Translations under genes and position numbers: made by a program
Notes under the pieces: model-generated
Told to the model about the DNA's origin: nothing
Seen by the model: only the letters and a program-made list of their open reading frames with translations
The model's database searches: none
Shown: piece after piece, positions 32,782 through 40,605 of the stretch
How positions within the stretch are numbered: the stretch's first letter is position 1
How the letters are laid out: every line of letters starts with the position of its first letter
Source of the DNA: an uncultured Gammaproteobacteria bacterium
GTDB taxonomy: Bacteria > Patescibacteriota > Patescibacteriia > Magasanikbacterales > UBA922
Direction of reading: 5' to 3'
NCBI GenBank assembly: GCA_964612105.1
Contig: CAZTEU010000001.1
Span: forward strand, 4,047 to 68,046
Length of the DNA stretch: 64,000 bases

Positions 32782-32855
32782 TCGGGTGGGCTGGATTTGA
32801 ACCAGCGACCTTGAGCTTTGTAGGCTCACACTCTACCTGACTGAGCTACCCCCCG
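32782..32855 (-). tRNA. tRNA whose apparent anticodon is ACA (it would read Cys UGU); identity needs checking
   Basis: Minus-strand read CGGGGGGTAGCTCAGTCAGGTAGAGTGTGAGCCTACAAAGCTCAAGGTCGCTGGTTCAAATCCAGCCCACCCGA. Anticodon stem TGAGC/GCTCA, loop CTACAAA. T-arm GCTGGTTCAAATCCAGC. Confidence 0.7.
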
Positions 32856-34492: not shown

Positions 34493-34527
34493 AAGAAAAA
34501 AATCCCTTAAATAAGGGGTTTTTTAGT
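34493..34527 (+). terminator. Intrinsic terminator
   Basis: AAAAAAATCCCTTAaataAGGGGTTTTTT. Confidence 0.55.
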
Positions 34528-34553: not shown

Positions 34554-34607
34554 TTGACAGGTATTTGCACCCATGGTATATTATCACTCGTCAATCAAGA
34601 GTGATAA
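34554..34607 (+). promoter_or_regulatory. hrcA promoter (TTGACA-17-TATATT) with a CIRCE-like inverted repeat (34581..34607) as HrcA operator
   Basis: TTATCACTC-N9-GAGTGATAA against the CIRCE consensus TTAGCACTC-N9-GAGTGCTAA. Confidence 0.7.
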
Positions 34608-34608
34608 T

Positions 34609-35289
34609 ATGACAGAACGCCAGAAACAACTTCTACAACTAATAACAGAATATTATATTGAGACTGCAGAGCCGGTAGGTTCTCAGATGTTAGTTGAATC
34701 TAATATTTTAGATGTTAGTGGGGCAACTGTACGTAATGATATGAGAGCTCTAGAAGAAGCAGGTTTTTTGACTCATCCACATACTTCTGCTGGTCGTGTT
34801 CCGACTCCAATGGGATATGAGTTCTACTCAGAACACATAATGAATAAACCGGAAGTACACAAAGAGTTAAGTGATTTATGTACAGACATAGCAAGTAGGG
34901 CAGATAATGAGCATCATGCTCTTAAGCAAAGTGCCAAAGAAATTGCAGAAATTGCGAATACTGCTGTTATTATGAGTCTGGGAGAGCAGAGTGTGTATTA
35001 CACAGGACTATCTCTACTGTTTGCTCAACCAGAATTTGTAGATCGTTCAATGTCATTAAATGTATCTGCTATGTTTGATAGGTGTGAACAGATACTCCCA
35101 GAAATTTTTGAGAAAGTAAATGAAGAACCAACAATATTTATTGGAAAAAATAATCCACTTGGCGATATGTGTGGAACAGTTGTTGGAAAAATAGGAAAAA
35201 ACAACTTATGTGCAATTGTTGGACCAACTAGAATGGATTATGAAAAGAATAGTCATCTAATACATACCATTCAAAAAATATTTGAATAA
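34609..35289 (+). CDS. hrcA: Heat-inducible transcription repressor HrcA (start at MTERQKQ; the ORF-track start 34573 lies inside the operator)
   Basis: MTERQKQLLQLITEYYIETAEPVGSQ winged-helix N-terminus. Confidence 0.85.
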   Translation: MTERQKQLLQLITEYYIETAEPVGSQMLVESNILDVSGATVRNDMRALEEAGFLTHPHTSAGRVPTPMGYEFYSEHIMNKPEVHKELSDLCTDIASRADNEHHALKQSAKEIAEIANTAVIMSLGEQSVYYTGLSLLFAQPEFVDRSMSLNVSAMFDRCEQILPEIFEKVNEEPTIFIGKNNPLGDMCGTVVGKIGKNNLCAIVGPTRMDYEKNSHLIHTIQKIFE

Positions 35290-35291
35290 TT

Positions 35292-36173
35292 ATGAATAAA
35301 AAAGACAGAAAACTTCCTCGCGCAACAACAGGAATATATATAGTAAATAAGAATGGAGAAATCCTACTTGCTCGTTCCAGTAAATGGAATGATTTACTTG
35401 TTCCACCAGGTGGTCATATAGAATACGGTGAGCCAATTATAGATTGTGTTGTTAGAGAGGCCAAAGAGGAAACCGGACTAGATGTAAAAAATGCTTCACT
35501 GTTGACTGTAATAGACATGATTGAACCAGAGAACTTTAACGCGTATACCACCCACTTTGTAGGACTACAGTTCCGCGCAGAGGTGGATAATCATGAAGAT
35601 GTTGTACTTGAAGAGCGTGAGTTACAGGATTACGAGTGGCTATTGCCAGAAGAAATAGTAAAAAGAGATGACGTGGAAGATTTGTCCAAAAAAATAGTTC
35701 AAGAGTACTTTGTAGATAGTACTCCAGAAAAAATAGACTCATTAAAAATTCAGCTAAATGAATTCAAGGAAGGGTGGAAGAGAGCCCAGGCAGATTATCA
35801 AAATCTGCACAAAAGTGTGGAGGATAATAGGAGTGAACTTGTAAGATTAAGTGAGCTACAGATTCTAAATGAGTTTTTACCAATATTGGATAATTTTAAG
35901 AAGTGTTTTAACTCAGTACCAGAAGACGATAAGCAGTGGGAGAATTGGAAAAAGGGTGTTGAATATATAATGAAACAATTCTCAGACGTAATGAAAGCAC
36001 ATAATATAGAAGATATAAGTACAGTAGGAAAGAAGTTTGATCCAGAGCTACATGAAGCAGTAGGAGAAGAAGAATCAGAAGAAAAAGAGGGGGTTGTAAT
36101 AAGAGAGGTAGACGCTGGATATACAATGAAAGGAAAAGTAATAAAAGTGGCAAAAGTAATTGTATCTAAATAA
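35292..36173 (+). CDS. grpE: Nudix hydrolase domain fused to GrpE nucleotide-exchange factor
   Basis: N-terminal GGHIEYGEPIIDCVVREAKEETGL Nudix box (aa about 30-140). C-terminal GrpE coiled-coil and beta-domain (...GKKFDPELHEAV...VIREVDAGYTMKGKVIKVAKV). Confidence 0.75.
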   Translation: MNKKDRKLPRATTGIYIVNKNGEILLARSSKWNDLLVPPGGHIEYGEPIIDCVVREAKEETGLDVKNASLLTVIDMIEPENFNAYTTHFVGLQFRAEVDNHEDVVLEERELQDYEWLLPEEIVKRDDVEDLSKKIVQEYFVDSTPEKIDSLKIQLNEFKEGWKRAQADYQNLHKSVEDNRSELVRLSELQILNEFLPILDNFKKCFNSVPEDDKQWENWKKGVEYIMKQFSDVMKAHNIEDISTVGKKFDPELHEAVGEEESEEKEGVVIREVDAGYTMKGKVIKVAKVIVSK

Positions 36174-36189
36174 TCAATAATATATTCAT

Positions 36190-36615
36190 ATGACACTAGT
36201 AAGATATTCCCCCAATTGGGATCCGTTCGAAGAAATGGCGGAGCTAATGAGAGGTTCACACTCACGCTCATACATGCCAGCAATGGATATGTACGAAGAA
36301 AAAGATAGCATAGTTGTAAAAACACCACTTGCAGGAATTAATCCAGATAATGTGCAAGTAAGTGTGGAAAAAGGAGTGGTAACAATACAAGGAGAATCAA
36401 AAAAAGAACATGAGGTAGATGATAAGAACTATTACAGAAAAGAAATCAGAGGCGGTTCATTCTTTAGACAAGTAGTACTTCCAACTGCGGTAAAGGAAAA
36501 AGATGTAAAAGCGGAATTTGAGGATGGAGTACTAAAAATAACATGCCCGAAAAAAGAAGAAGAAAAAGCTAAACAAATTAATGTAAAAATAATCAAGAAA
36601 TCTAATAAAAAATAA
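36190..36615 (+). CDS. Hsp20/alpha-crystallin small heat-shock protein
   Basis: Alpha-crystallin domain; about 141 aa. Confidence 0.8.
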   Translation: MTLVRYSPNWDPFEEMAELMRGSHSRSYMPAMDMYEEKDSIVVKTPLAGINPDNVQVSVEKGVVTIQGESKKEHEVDDKNYYRKEIRGGSFFRQVVLPTAVKEKDVKAEFEDGVLKITCPKKEEEKAKQINVKIIKKSNKK

Positions 36616-36618
36616 TAT

Positions 36619-38580
36619 ATGTCAAAGATTCTAGGAATAGACCTTGGAACAACAAATAGCTGTATGGCTATAGTGGAGGGTGGACAACCAAAGGTATTAG
36701 AAAACAAAGAGGGGAACAGAACTACACCATCTATTGTGGCTGTATCAAAAACAGGAGAACGTCTGGTAGGTCAGCTAGCAAAAAGACAAGCTGTAACAAA
36801 TCCACAAAACACACTCCATTCTGTAAAGCGTCTTATCGGACGTAGAATTAATGATGCAGAGGTACAGGATGTGAAGAAACACGCACCGTACGAAATTTCT
36901 GCTGATGGCGAGCGTGTAAAAGTAAAAATAGGAGACAAGACTCACACACCACCAGAAATAGCTGCTATGGTATTGCAGAAACTAAAAGCAGATGCTGAAG
37001 AAAAAACAGGTGAAAAAATAGAAGAAGCGGTTATTACTGTTCCAGCGTACTTTGATGATTCACAGCGCCAAGCTACTAAAGCAGCTGGAGAAATAGCCGG
37101 ACTAAAAGTAAGTAGGATTATTAACGAACCTACAGCAGCAGCTTTTGCTTATGGTTTTGATAAGAAGAATGATCAGAAGATAGTGGTATATGATTTGGGA
37201 GGTGGAACTTTCGATGTTTCTGTATTGGAGATTTCACATGATAGTGAGGACAACGCTTCAACTGTAGAGGTTAAGGCTACAAGTGGTGATACACACCTTG
37301 GTGGTGACGACTTTGACAAGAAGATTATTGATTGGATATTGGATGAATTTAAGAAGGTAGAAGGAATTGACTTATCCTCAGACCCATTAAGTCTACAACG
37401 TGTAAAGGACGCCGCTGAGAAGGCAAAAATTGAGCTCTCAAGCACTCCGGAGACAGAAATCAATGAACCATTCATAACAAGCGGGGCAGAAGGTCCCAAG
37501 CACCTAAATCTAAAACTTTCCCGCGCTAAGCTAGAAGATCTTGTTGCGGAACTAACAGAAAAGACAATGCGTCCTGTAGAAAAGGCACTTGCAGACTCTG
37601 GATATAGTAAGTCAGAAATTGATGAAGTAATTCTGGTTGGTGGAATGACACGTATGCCATTGATTCAGAACAAAGTAGAAGAGTTTTTTGGTAAGAAACC
37701 AAATGTAAGTGTTAACCCAGACGAAGTAGTATCAATTGGTGCAGCAATACAAGCCGGACAGCTACAAGGTGACCTAGGGCAAGACATTCTTCTTCTAGAT
37801 GTTACTCCGCTTTCACTTGGGCTAGAAACATTGGGAAGTGTTTCTACAAAACTTATAGAAAAAAACACAACAATTCCAACAAGTAAATCACAAGTATTTT
37901 CTACTGCAGCAGATAGTCAACCAAGTGTAAAAGTACATGTGTTACAAGGAGAGCGTGAGATGGCAGCAGACAATAAGTCTCTCGGTAGATTTATTCTAGA
38001 CGGACTTCCACCTGCACCACGCGGAGTTCCTCAAATTGAAGTTACATTTGATATAGACGCTAATGGGATATTAAATGTTTCTGCCAAAGATAAAGGCACG
38101 GGAAAAGAGCAGAGTATTCGTATAGAGGCATCAAGTGGTCTTTCTGATGAAGAAATTGAAAAGATGAAAAAAGATGCGGAAGCTCACGCAGATGATGATA
38201 AAAAGAAACGTGAGTTAATAGATGTGCGTAACACAGCAGATACAATGGTGTATACTACAGAAAAAATGATGAAAGATGTGGAAGAGAAGAAAATAGAAAT
38301 TACAGATGAAGAAAAGAAAGCTGTAGAAGATGCTCTCACAAAGATGAAAGAATTAAAGGACGGAGAGGATTTAGAAGCTATCAAAAGTGCATCTGAAGAA
38401 CTCTCAAAAGCAGGTCAGGCAGTTGGTATGAAAATGTACCAGGCTGAACAAGCAAAAGCAGGGGAAGGTAATCCAGAAGCCCCAAAAGAAGGTGAGAATG
38501 AAGAAAAGAAAGAAGAGGCTGTAGAGGGTGAGGTAGTAGATGATTCATCTGCTGGTACAGATGAAGAAAAAAGTGCATAA
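36619..38580 (+). CDS. dnaK: Chaperone DnaK (Hsp70)
   Basis: [18 protein letters not shown], full length 653 aa. Confidence 0.97.
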
Positions 38581-38645: not shown

Positions 38646-39218
38646 ATGTCAAACTCCGACAAAGGGAGAGGAACAGGGCCAAAACCAGACGTTGGCCACT
38701 TCGCATCAGTAGAACAAAGAGATTTAAAACAAAGAATCACAGAATTCCAAGCGCACTTTAGGTCTCTTATTGAAAAAGTAAAATCTGGGGAATTTGCAGA
38801 TAAACCAATCTTGGACTTAGAAAACATGATTGATAATCTAGGGGAAAAAGAATTAAAAGTATGGGAACAGTATGAAAGTATGCTTGTGGGGATTGTCCGT
38901 CGTTTTGAAGGCGTGGAGCAGAGCGAAGAAGAGAGAAGTAGAGGCCACAAGGTAGTTAATCCAGACACCAATCCGCTGTACGAACATATTCAGAATGGCA
39001 CCACTGGTAATTTTAAAGAATGGGCAAGGAATAGGTGGGGAACCACAAAGACATTGCTGTCTGGTTATAGAGAATCAGATGATCAACAAGAAAAAGAAGA
39101 AATAGCACAAGATTTACTAACAGAAGCAAGACGTTATTTAGACGAAGATTTATATAAAAGCCTGACAGAAGTAGAAGAAGTGGGGGTGGAGGAAATAAGT
39201 GGGGATAGTGAAGAGTAA
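38646..39218 (+). CDS. Acidic hypothetical protein inserted between dnaK and dnaJ
   Basis: 190 aa. No motif. Glu/Asp-rich C-terminus. Confidence 0.4.
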   Translation: MSNSDKGRGTGPKPDVGHFASVEQRDLKQRITEFQAHFRSLIEKVKSGEFADKPILDLENMIDNLGEKELKVWEQYESMLVGIVRRFEGVEQSEEERSRGHKVVNPDTNPLYEHIQNGTTGNFKEWARNRWGTTKTLLSGYRESDDQQEKEEIAQDLLTEARRYLDEDLYKSLTEVEEVGVEEISGDSEE

Positions 39219-39235
39219 TCCAACAGCTAACAATT

Positions 39236-39511
39236 ATGTCCAAAGACTATTACAAAATCTTAGGTGTAGAAAAAAGTGCATCTCAAAAAGATATAAAGAG
39301 TTCGTTCTATAGTCTTAAAAAAGGAGTAGATCCTGAAAGTGACCCATACAAAGACCTATATCAGGCCTATGTGGTAATTAGTAATCCTAAACTTAGAGAG
39401 AAGTATGATTTATATGGAGAAACGTATGAAGATAGGCCGAAGAAATTTTCTGACTGGCTGTACGGAACTGGAATATCAGAGCTTGGGGATATAATAGATT
39501 TATTAGATTAG
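39236..39511 (+). CDS. J-domain-like protein lacking the HPD motif, derived from a duplication of the dnaJ 5' end
   Basis: The first roughly 50 nt are about 85% identical to the dnaJ start ([13 protein letters not shown]). The HPD position reads KKGVDPESD. Confidence 0.55.
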
Positions 39512-39513
39512 AC

Positions 39514-40605
39514 ATGTCCAAAGACTACTATAAAATTTTAGGCGTAGAAAAAAAAGCAACTCAAGAAGAAATTAAAAAGACTTTCAGAAAACTGGCTCAC
39601 AAATATCATCCAGACAAAAAAACAGGTGATGAGGCAAAGTTCAAGGAAGTAAATGAGGCTTACCAAGTTCTTGGGGACGAAAAGAAGCGCCAGCAATACG
39701 ACCAGTTTGGATCTAACTTTGACCAACAAGGTGGTTTTGGTGGTGGAATGGGCTGGGATGACTTCATGCGTGCAACAAGAGGTGGAGGAGGCTTCTCTGG
39801 TAATTTTGGTGGTGTAGATTTAGGGGATATATTTGGTGATATATTTGGATTTGGTGGACGCTCACGTGGAAACCGTAAAGCAAGAGGTCGTGATATACAA
39901 GTGGATGTTGAGATAGATTTCAAAGATGCTGTGTATGGCACAGAAAAACAAATACATCTTGCAAAACACAATGCTTGTAATGACTGTAATGGAAGTGGTG
40001 GACAGCCAGGATCTGGAACAGAAACGTGTAAAGAATGTAATGGACAGGGGCAAGTTATGCGTGTTCAGAGGACAATACTTGGTGCCATGCAGACAGCAAG
40101 TGCCTGCACAAGCTGTAGCGGAAGAGGACAAATAATTAAAGAAAAATGCAAAAAGTGCAACGGGCATGGTGCATTACGAGAAAATACAGAGATAAGTATA
40201 AAGATTCCAGCAGGGATAGATGATGGACAGTCCATTAGACTATCAGGAAAAGGGGAGTACCCTGGACAAGGCGGTGTGGCTGGAGATTTATATGTGCAAA
40301 TTCATGTAAAGGCAGACAAAAAGTTTAAACGCGATGGTTATGATATATTAAGCGAAACGACAATTTCATATCCACAAGCTGTTTTGGGTGACCAGATAAA
40401 AATACAAACAGTAGATGGTGAAAAAACACTTGTCATTCCTGCAGGAACCCAATCTCATCAGAAGTTTAGACTAAAAGATCTTGGGGTGACACACCTAAAT
40501 GGAAGTAGTCGTGGTAGTCAGTACATTACAGTTGTAGTGGATGTGCCCAAGAAAGTAAATAAAAAGACAAGAAAGTTGATTGAGGAATTAAAAAAAGAAA
40601 TATAA
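39514..40605 (+). CDS. dnaJ: Chaperone DnaJ
   Basis: J domain with HPD, a G/F region, and four CxxCxGxG zinc-finger repeats. Confidence 0.95.

Follow-up and report, generated by a model that had tools for sequence, protein, structure and literature searches.

Does the gene in the grpE position of a heat-shock operon on contig CAZTEU010000001.1 encode a single protein that is both a Nudix hydrolase and the nucleotide exchange factor of DnaK, and, if so, what would the enzyme be doing there? The gene lies within a stretch of 64,000 nucleotides of this contig that was analyzed as a whole (hereafter the window). A preliminary description, made from the sequence alone, had proposed that a Nudix domain is fused to the N-terminus of GrpE, and had suggested that a nucleotide or alarmone pool is thereby linked to chaperone cycling. 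The gene, its open reading frame (ORF) and its parts are as follows.

35292..36173, + strand: nudix-grpE fusion gene, 293 amino acids (aa) plus stop codon (ORF reading, Pfam, protein search)
35316..35714, + strand: Nudix hydrolase domain, aa 9-141, alpha/beta/alpha fold (Pfam, AlphaFold2, Foldseek)
35412..35480, + strand: Nudix box GHIEYGEPIIDCVVREAKEETGL, aa 41-63, the metal-binding catalytic motif (alignment conservation)
35715..35723, + strand: inter-domain linker, aa 142-144, between the Nudix helix 130-141 and the GrpE helix that starts at 145 (AlphaFold2)
35721..36170, + strand: GrpE domain, aa 144-293 (Pfam PF01025, PDB matches, AlphaFold2)

The ATG of the 293-aa ORF lies 2 nt past the hrcA stop codon, and the sequence reads through without an in-frame stop. 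Pfam identified both of the domains that had been ascribed to this one gene, NUDIX (PF00293) at aa 9-137 (E-value 1.3e-22, 80.6 bits vs. a cutoff of 21.1) and GrpE (PF01025) at aa 144-293 (E-value 5.5e-38, 130.7 bits vs. a cutoff of 25.8), the latter match extending over positions 16-165 of the 165 in the profile. In-frame ATG, GTG, and TTG codons were looked for between M76 and M227 and none was found, so that an internal start cannot yield a separate GrpE carrying the long helix of that protein. No second match to the Nudix half or to the GrpE half was present within the window.

A search of 5.8 billion proteins identified a protein identical to the fusion in an independent ENA assembly (P0001) and ~74 cluster representatives with both NUDIX and GrpE at 41-58% identity, below which ranked GrpE-only proteins of 160-190 aa with 55-63% identity to the GrpE half. 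The survey of GrpE architectures in related genomes that the preliminary description had recommended was made on GTDB species-representative genomes, where the fusion was encoded at 41 of 80 loci. The identical independent protein, the two-domain representatives and the fused loci together exclude the frameshift or missed stop codon by which two genes might have been read as one. When all sources were pooled there were 122 distinct fusion sequences, with the Nudix domain N-terminal to GrpE in every one, and the named records belong to Candidatus Magasanikbacteria and Candidatus Falkowbacteria (Patescibacteria/Parcubacteria group). The slot in which the fusion recurs is always that after hrcA, and the flanking order (CCA-adding enzyme, YidC, Band7, HrcA, GrpE, Hsp20, DnaK, DnaJ) is the same with or without the Nudix domain; hsp20 is present in 36 of 42 fused loci and in 29 of 41 related loci with a short GrpE. 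The GrpE of the short relatives has a charged, low-complexity tail of 30-40 aa. Databases name the fusions "nucleotide exchange factor GrpE" or "Protein GrpE," in which the extra domain is not reflected, and full-text literature searches for GrpE with Nudix found no paper on a Nudix-GrpE fusion.

The Nudix half has the complete box and fold that had been claimed for it. The box is exactly as it had been quoted, with the spelling G41-x5-E47-x7-R55-E56-x2-E59-E60-x-G62-L63, and agrees with the general form G-x5-E-x7-R-E-U-x-E-E-x-G-U. An alignment of 33 fusions showed G41, E47, R55, and E59 to be invariant, which removes the initial concern that the catalytic residues might prove non-conserved when properly aligned, and E56, E60, and L63 to be at least 90% conserved; across 121 fused domains the E and R positions of the box are 98-100% conserved. 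By a regular-expression scan 78 of the 122 fusions match the strict box pattern and 35 of the remaining 44 match a looser pattern that keeps G, E, and R-E; most of these have either N in place of the last G of the box or a change at the hydrophobic residue that follows R-E. Neither pattern was located by the scan in nine of the 122, sequences that were not inspected individually, and in P0029 the box is clearly degenerate. For three close pairs with unsaturated synonymous divergence, the ratio of nonsynonymous to synonymous substitution rates (dN/dS) was 0.03-0.10 in the Nudix half vs. 0.03-0.14 in the GrpE half, indicating that both halves of the fusion are under purifying selection. The conserved catalytic residues and the low ratio in the Nudix half suggest a putative Mg/Mn-dependent hydrolase that would act on nucleoside-diphosphate-X compounds. 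AlphaFold2, run with the family alignment, gave a mean predicted local distance difference test (pLDDT) score of 88.8 overall and ~95-97 over the Nudix region (~96 for aa 10-141). The best Foldseek structure for this half was 4kyx (probability 1.00, target-normalized template modeling score 0.82, 132 columns, root-mean-square deviation 2.0), followed by AtNUDX1, GDP-mannose mannosyl hydrolase (GDPMH), and NUDT15, and the Foldseek neighbors also included the diadenosine tetraphosphate (Ap4A) and diadenosine hexaphosphate (Ap6A) hydrolases 1vc8, 4ijx, and 1ktg.

The substrate class can be narrowed by comparison with characterized enzymes. The best PDB sequence matches of the Nudix half were AtNUDX1 (2e-13) and NUDT15 (5e-8). 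AtNUDX1/RhNUDX1 and human NUDT15 (6FL4, 5GP0, 6YPB, 5BON), small Nudix pyrophosphatases of nucleoside triphosphates or prenyl diphosphates, share with it the PGGH-x-E-x-GE start of the box and a length of ~140 aa, but are free-standing and 24-34% identical, and none of the substrate-defining residues of AtNUDX1 or NUDT15 was transferable to it. Searches of PDB, Foldseek, NCBIfam, and gene neighborhoods yielded no substrate assignment. Among the NCBIfam models, those for MutT 8-oxo-dGTP diphosphatase scored 37.9 bits vs. a cutoff of 97.9 (TIGR00586) and 29.4 vs. 148 (NF008044), NudC NAD(H) diphosphatase 43.3 vs. 158, NudB dihydroneopterin-triphosphate diphosphatase 30.8 vs. 103, GDPMH 40.2 vs. 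146, and ADP-ribose pyrophosphatase (TIGR00052) 20.2 vs. 79.6. A proline ~16 residues after the box is a marker of ADP-ribose pyrophosphatases; the window protein has P79 at 16 residues after L63, and Pro is present there in 44% of fused and in 50% of free-standing domains. The name given to 4kyx, the nearest structure, is no more than an annotation. No Ap4A hydrolase model was among the NCBIfam matches of the Nudix half, and the PDB Ap4A hydrolases match it at just 1e-6 to 8e-6. A tyrosine ~16-18 residues after the box was reportedly described by Dunn and co-workers in 1999 as the mark of Ap(n)A hydrolases; the column that contains a tyrosine here, Y85, is not conserved, having K, P, or G in fused relatives.

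An exhaustive HMMER search with aa 1-140 as query recovered many single-domain Nudix proteins of 138-145 aa at 35-44% identity. Such free-standing proteins occur in Patescibacteria as well as in other uncultivated prokaryotes (e.g., P0129 of Candidatus Magasanikbacteria, and P0125); they are 40-44% identical to the fused domain and have the same signature residues, but are not joined to GrpE and have heterogeneous gene contexts: the gene of one overlaps that of a sugar-nucleotidyltransferase within a glycosyltransferase cluster, and others lie beside GrpB or, in an archaeon, between the PCNA and primase genes. In an unrelated metagenome-assembled genome (MAG; L088, 4625-8426), groES-groEL precede a gene for a CxxCxxCC protein and then a pair of Nudix genes; the latter of the pair encodes P0125, which at 44% identity ranks with the nearest of the free-standing relatives that the fused domain has. 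Since the family positions outside the box (N19, K31, W32, P39, G40, H42, H88, E110, and W116) are similarly conserved in 121 fused and 108 free-standing domains, the comparison suggests that the fused domain is an ordinary member of its family, not re-purposed and with its biochemistry unchanged. In other proteins, members of this small Nudix family are fused to HAD plus FolB, HAD, tetrapyrrole methylase, and PfkB kinase (P0222, P0236, P0241, P0249); it is a domain that joins many partners; the fusion with HAD plus FolB suggests a dihydroneopterin-triphosphate route.

The GrpE half was described at the outset as bona fide, and it is: in addition to the Pfam score given above, the AlphaFold2 model contains helices at 145-178 (long), 180-205, and 213-236 (four-helix-bundle region) and a C-terminal beta domain at 239-292, with block-mean pLDDT of ~68-94 and a Foldseek match to the GrpE-DnaK model 9a81. 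Its PDB sequence matches were 4ani (2e-19) and 1dkg (1.2e-14), and the C-terminal 150 aa of the fusion align throughout with the GrpE proteins of Geobacillus kaustophilus (4ANI) and E. coli (1DKG). The canonical positions R164, A167, D168, N171, L172, F195, P197, F249-D-P, H254, and G276-Y277 are all retained. The strict pattern of the PROSITE GrpE signature PS01071 was unmatched, with K at one [RI] position, and a version relaxed at that position matches from F249. The cutoffs of the NCBIfam GrpE equivalogs were all missed, the best being NF010738 at 101.8 bits vs. 137; as these models are lineage-specific, the lower score reflects divergence and not non-membership. The GrpE half would be expected to stimulate ADP release and to homodimerize, functions supported by its context, with dnaK two genes downstream and no second match to this half in the window, and the hrcA-grpE-dnaK arrangement is itself one that the fusion has in common with canonical GrpE.

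Where the fusion differs is at its N-terminus. Canonical GrpE is ~170-200 aa long and has a disordered N-terminal tail of ~30 aa with a motif bound by the substrate-binding domain (SBD) of DnaK, whereas the 293-aa fusion has a folded 140-aa Nudix enzyme instead. In E. coli the SBD-binding motif of the tail is IIM (PMC12915176); the disordered tail binds where substrates normally bind the SBD and helps clients to leave, and the long helix of GrpE touches the SBD as well (PMC12915176, PMC10803776). A phmmer alignment paired PEEIV of the fusion with the tail motif PEEIIM of E. coli, of which it might have been a remnant; this candidate was rejected, as PEEIV is equally conserved in free-standing Nudix proteins. 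The linker has a median length of ~17 aa in related fusions, often with a CxxC, vs. ~3 aa and no CxxC in the window protein. A CxxC just N-terminal of the GrpE long helix (alignment columns ~180-195) was observed in 58 of 122 fusions and 15 of 46 short forms (P0075-P0120), and the two linker CxxC motifs of a dimer, lying where the coiled coil begins at its base, could together make up a Cys4 site for metal binding or redox chemistry. Judging from the AlphaFold2 model and these papers, the Nudix domain in a complex with DnaK would be located beside the SBD, with the 34 residues of the long helix between it and the region of GrpE by which the nucleotide cleft is opened. Such a position, near the SBD and far from the cleft, argues against direct handling of the nucleotide released by DnaK; the same geometry would be compatible with an effect on client release.

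We conclude that in these lineages GrpE has at its N-terminus a slot for the gain, swap, and loss of domains. A tree of the linked DnaK genes (611 columns, 100 bootstraps) separated Falkowbacteria-type and Magasanikbacteria-type clades with 100% support for each, and in the latter clade fused and short forms were recovered as sister pairs (L007/L082, support 100; L009/L081, 100; L008/L033, 99; and L005/L042, 93). Many MAG records within the Patescibacteria clades of this tree are titled "uncultured Gammaproteobacteria bacterium" (L005, L007, L012, L014, and others), titles that appear to be placeholders or mislabels. The GrpE halves of L007 and L082 are ~85% identical by eye and both keep the linker with its CxxC; the Nudix domain of one is replaced by an acidic tail of ~40 aa in the other. 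Protein P0327 has a 140-aa N-terminal region in which the Nudix box has decayed. Loss of the Nudix domain is directly evidenced. Between L009 and L012 identity is 51% in the Nudix half but 88% in the GrpE half, and it changes sharply at DYKAGWQRAQ, which suggests mosaic evolution by a recombination that exchanged one module.

When the GrpE half of L068 was used as the query, the best 120 matches comprised ~31 Nudix-GrpE proteins, 8 DUF1653-GrpE proteins, and ~80 short GrpE proteins. An apparent rule that all Falkowbacteria are fused was discarded as an ascertainment artifact of ranking loci by the fused query, the GrpE-only query showing a mix. The DUF1653-GrpE fusions (P0274-P0276, P0279, P0332, P0362, P0369, P0371; locus L094, 6001-6642) are of the Falkowbacteria type. 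Like the Nudix fusion, they place a small folded domain before the long helix, in the same hrcA-X-grpE-hsp20-dnaK slot (P0274 and L094, Candidatus Falkowbacteria), and in the GrpE half they reach 87% identity with the Nudix-GrpE protein L068; their N-terminal part, however, is a 62-aa domain (PF07866) unrelated to Nudix, whose sole PDB relative, 3be3, was deposited as "uncharacterized protein." The slot can also be filled by two tandem Nudix domains, as in the Nudix-Nudix-GrpE proteins of ~450 aa (P0166, P0201). In 41 short-GrpE loci no Nudix ORF was found within ~6 kb on either strand, hrcA abutting grpE directly. A check for a single origin, by a neighbor-joining tree of Nudix domains and nearest-neighbor identities, lacked resolution, fused and free-standing domains being interleaved at 40-60% identity. 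An HD_4 (RelA/SpoT-type) hydrolase was considered as a substitute for the Nudix domain and rejected, as HD_4 occurs in 2 of 42 fused and 2 of 41 short loci with no anticorrelation. The HD_4 gene is situated between dnaK and dnaJ in the short-GrpE locus L001 (9746-10384) and in L006, L013, and L053.

The gene order around the fusion is SPFH/Band7, a hairpin, hrcA, nudix-grpE, hsp20, dnaK, a 190-aa ORF, a 91-aa J-like ORF, and dnaJ.

34504..34524, + strand: terminator-like hairpin CCCTTA-AA-TAAGGG plus T run, at the end of the SPFH/Band7 gene (sequence reading)
34554..34582, + strand: sigma-70-like promoter, with -35 TTGACA at 34554-34559, a 17-nt spacer, and -10 TATATT at 34577-34582
34581..34607, + strand: HrcA operator TTATCACTC-N9-GAGTGATAA, a perfect inverted repeat resembling CIRCE (controlling inverted repeat of chaperone expression; consensus comparison)
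34609..35289, + strand: hrcA, short form, 226 aa (Pfam HrcA C-terminal domain, 1.1e-12, and helix-turn-helix matches)
36190..36615, + strand: hsp20, small heat-shock protein (Pfam HSP20, 4.2e-22)
36619..38580, + strand: dnaK, the Hsp70 partner of GrpE (Pfam HSP70, 1.5e-245)
38646-39218, + strand: acidic ORF of 190 aa, downstream of dnaK and upstream of dnaJ, unmatched in Pfam and NCBIfam
39236-39511, + strand: 91-aa J-domain-only ORF directly upstream of dnaJ, 40% identical to the J domain of DnaJ
39514..40605, + strand: dnaJ, full length, with J, zinc-finger, and C-terminal domains (Pfam)

The hairpin sets the SPFH/Band7 gene apart from the heat-shock operon. The operator has two symmetric mismatches to the CIRCE consensus TTAGCACTC-N9-GAGTGCTAA, with a chance expectation of 0.01 matches, and its left arm overlaps the -10 hexamer. 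An equivalent element is present 5' of hrcA in 78 of 79 related loci; in the Magasanikbacteria-type loci (within L005-L084) it reads TTATCACTC-N9-GAGTG[AC]TAA, and in the Falkowbacteria-type loci it is the canonical TTAGCACTC-N9-GAGTGCTAA with a -35-like TTGACA inside the 9-nt spacer. With CIRCE at the promoter here and at 78 of those 79 loci, the fusion gene falls within a conserved HrcA/CIRCE operon that, on the evidence of its sequence, would be repressed by HrcA. The hrcA-grpE-dnaK heat-shock operon of the preliminary description stands, with the addition of hsp20 between grpE and dnaK and of the conserved CIRCE. The true start of hrcA is probably the ATG at 34609 rather than the start of the longest ORF at 34573, since the latter would put CIRCE and the -10 box within the coding sequence. 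A homolog of the 190-aa acidic ORF was present in one of 42 related fusion loci. The 91-aa ORF is probably a degenerate duplicate of the J domain, its first 13 residues being near-identical to those of DnaJ and its HPD motif reading DPE. A tRNA gene at 32782-32855 (- strand) lies between the gene for the CCA-adding enzyme and yidC, and several spurious listed ORFs overlap it.

What, then, would the enzyme be doing on GrpE? The explanation we propose, to which we would give about an even chance of being correct, is that the protein is bifunctional, combining a normal GrpE with an active and independent housecleaning hydrolase of the NUDX1/NUDT15/MutT-like type that is co-regulated with the heat-shock genes. 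The N-terminal 140 residues would make up a small Nudix pyrophosphohydrolase, capable of catalysis and belonging with the NUDX1/NUDT15/MutT-like "PGGH-x-E-x-GE" enzymes, which, by analogy with its characterized relatives, most likely strips pyrophosphate from damaged or non-canonical substrates of the nucleoside-triphosphate type. Taking the place of the disordered N-terminal tail of GrpE, the domain would be brought by the fusion under the HrcA/CIRCE heat-shock switch and be produced 1:1 with GrpE, whose coiled coil would hold two copies together at its tip. Probably the hydrolase and exchange activities would be independent, the Nudix domain being accessory cargo outside the exchange mechanism. 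Its accessory nature shows in the fused/short sister pairs, L007/L082 in particular, the decayed P0327, the DUF1653 and double-Nudix variants, and the other partners of the Nudix family; the catalytic activity, the substrate class, the independence of the activities, and the dimer geometry are our deductions. Several points weigh against this explanation. The NCBIfam equivalog models (NudC, GDPMH, MutT, NudB, RppH, and others) all scored far below cutoff, and an origin by fusion of adjacent genes is undocumented, the 41 short loci containing no unfused hrcA-nudix-grpE precursor. The free-standing relative adjacent to groES-groEL could represent a second chaperone association and a hint of a real functional link. 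The long-lasting and strong purifying selection indicated for the fused form may mean that the physical linkage itself matters, and the substrate-release role of the lost tail may have passed to the Nudix domain or been changed by it.

The coupling of chaperone cycling to a nucleotide or alarmone pool, as first suggested for this locus, was not borne out: the domain is present or absent in close relatives, can be replaced by the unrelated DUF1653, and can be duplicated, and coupling to nucleotide exchange is not supported, as nothing computed favors it over simple co-regulation. In its most direct form the tethered Nudix domain would hydrolyze a nucleotide that acts on DnaK (Ap4A, damaged ATP/ADP analogs, or the released ADP), so that GrpE would both empty and "clean" the nucleotide site of Hsp70, or remove an inhibitor during heat shock. 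The conserved catalytic residues under purifying selection, the heat-shock control predicted from CIRCE, the relative encoded directly after groES-groEL, and the Ap4A/Ap6A hydrolases among the structural neighbors are all in keeping with this, as is the photo-crosslinking of Ap4A to DnaK, GroEL, and ClpB in E. coli, which bind this nucleotide, and its degradation by Nudix enzymes (reviewed in PMC10148737). We nevertheless consider it unlikely, as fused and free-standing domains carry the same signature, subfamily thresholds were not reached, the Ap(n)A tyrosine is not conserved, the contexts of the other free-standing relatives are unrelated to chaperones, and the Nudix domain is at the end of the long helix near which the SBD lies (PMC10803776), the length of that helix (34 residues) separating it from the beta domain that binds the nucleotide-binding domain of DnaK. 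The location beside the SBD could instead mean that the folded domain, in replacing a pseudo-substrate tail, tunes client release sterically or as a temperature-sensitive element, in which case the slot would accept different domains (Nudix, DUF1653) to this end and catalysis would be secondary. That the tail is almost wholly replaced, with a 3-residue linker, that three different N-terminal solutions occur at the same slot, and that substrate release depends critically on the tail, a ligand of the SBD (PMC12915176, PMC10803776), speak for such a role. It too seems improbable, however, given that catalytic and ligand-side residues are conserved as in the free-standing enzymes, which a steric role would not need, that the "PEEI" likeness to the E. 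coli tail is a general feature of the Nudix fold, and that in many relatives a long charged linker is retained and might yet do the work of the tail.

A further reading, the most novel, would have the GrpE N-terminus of these reduced-genome bacteria as a modular docking arm that brings small enzymes (Nudix, DUF1653) to the SBD of DnaK, with the Nudix domain acting on a target specific to the chaperone cycle. Its targets might be Ap4A or damaged adenine nucleotides by which DnaK would be poisoned under stress, or nucleotide-derived modifications on DnaK or its clients; we view it as quite unlikely. The use of Nudix folds as sensors is established, as in NrtR, and it is feasible that the domain binds a nucleotide metabolite and regulates GrpE allosterically in an NrtR-like manner, the short and, in the model, rigid junction between the Nudix and GrpE helices being one that could pass on a conformational change. 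Sensor Nudix domains typically have degenerate boxes, however, and in this family almost every member has an intact box (possible exceptions being P0029, P0327, and the nine pattern-negative sequences); we also found no evidence of a dedicated ligand of the Nudix domain, and judge a sensor very unlikely. As to the gene being an artifact, i.e., adjacent genes merged by sequencing or assembly error, or a pseudogene, a few entries that are seemingly free-standing (P0143, P0212) are in fact fusions interrupted just inside the GrpE helix, but the ORF in the window is uninterrupted, the 122 distinct sequences come from many independent assemblies, including closed 1.2-Mb contigs, and both halves bear the mark of purifying selection, so that we regard this chance as practically negligible.

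GrpE is among the most thoroughly studied of co-chaperones, and recent work on it centers on the interaction of its disordered tail with the DnaK SBD. What is new here is a GrpE with an N-terminal domain that, from its conserved residues, would be catalytic, in a lineage in which that position is modular: in two candidate phyla the tail is replaced by a folded, apparently active enzyme, by DUF1653, or by two enzymes, and the close relatives with and without the Nudix domain constitute natural controls. The evidence favors an accessory, co-regulated cargo over a new mechanism. If the linkage proved functional, it would provide the first handle on the long-suspected connection between stress nucleotides (Ap4A) and Hsp70, and a docking arm, if that is what the N-terminus is, would make this the first exchange factor of the GrpE type with built-in catalysis feeding Hsp70 function. 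If there is only co-regulation, the fusion still shows that the tail position of GrpE tolerates large cargo, and it would mean that Patescibacteria have put nucleotide housecleaning under one of their few regulons, HrcA/CIRCE.

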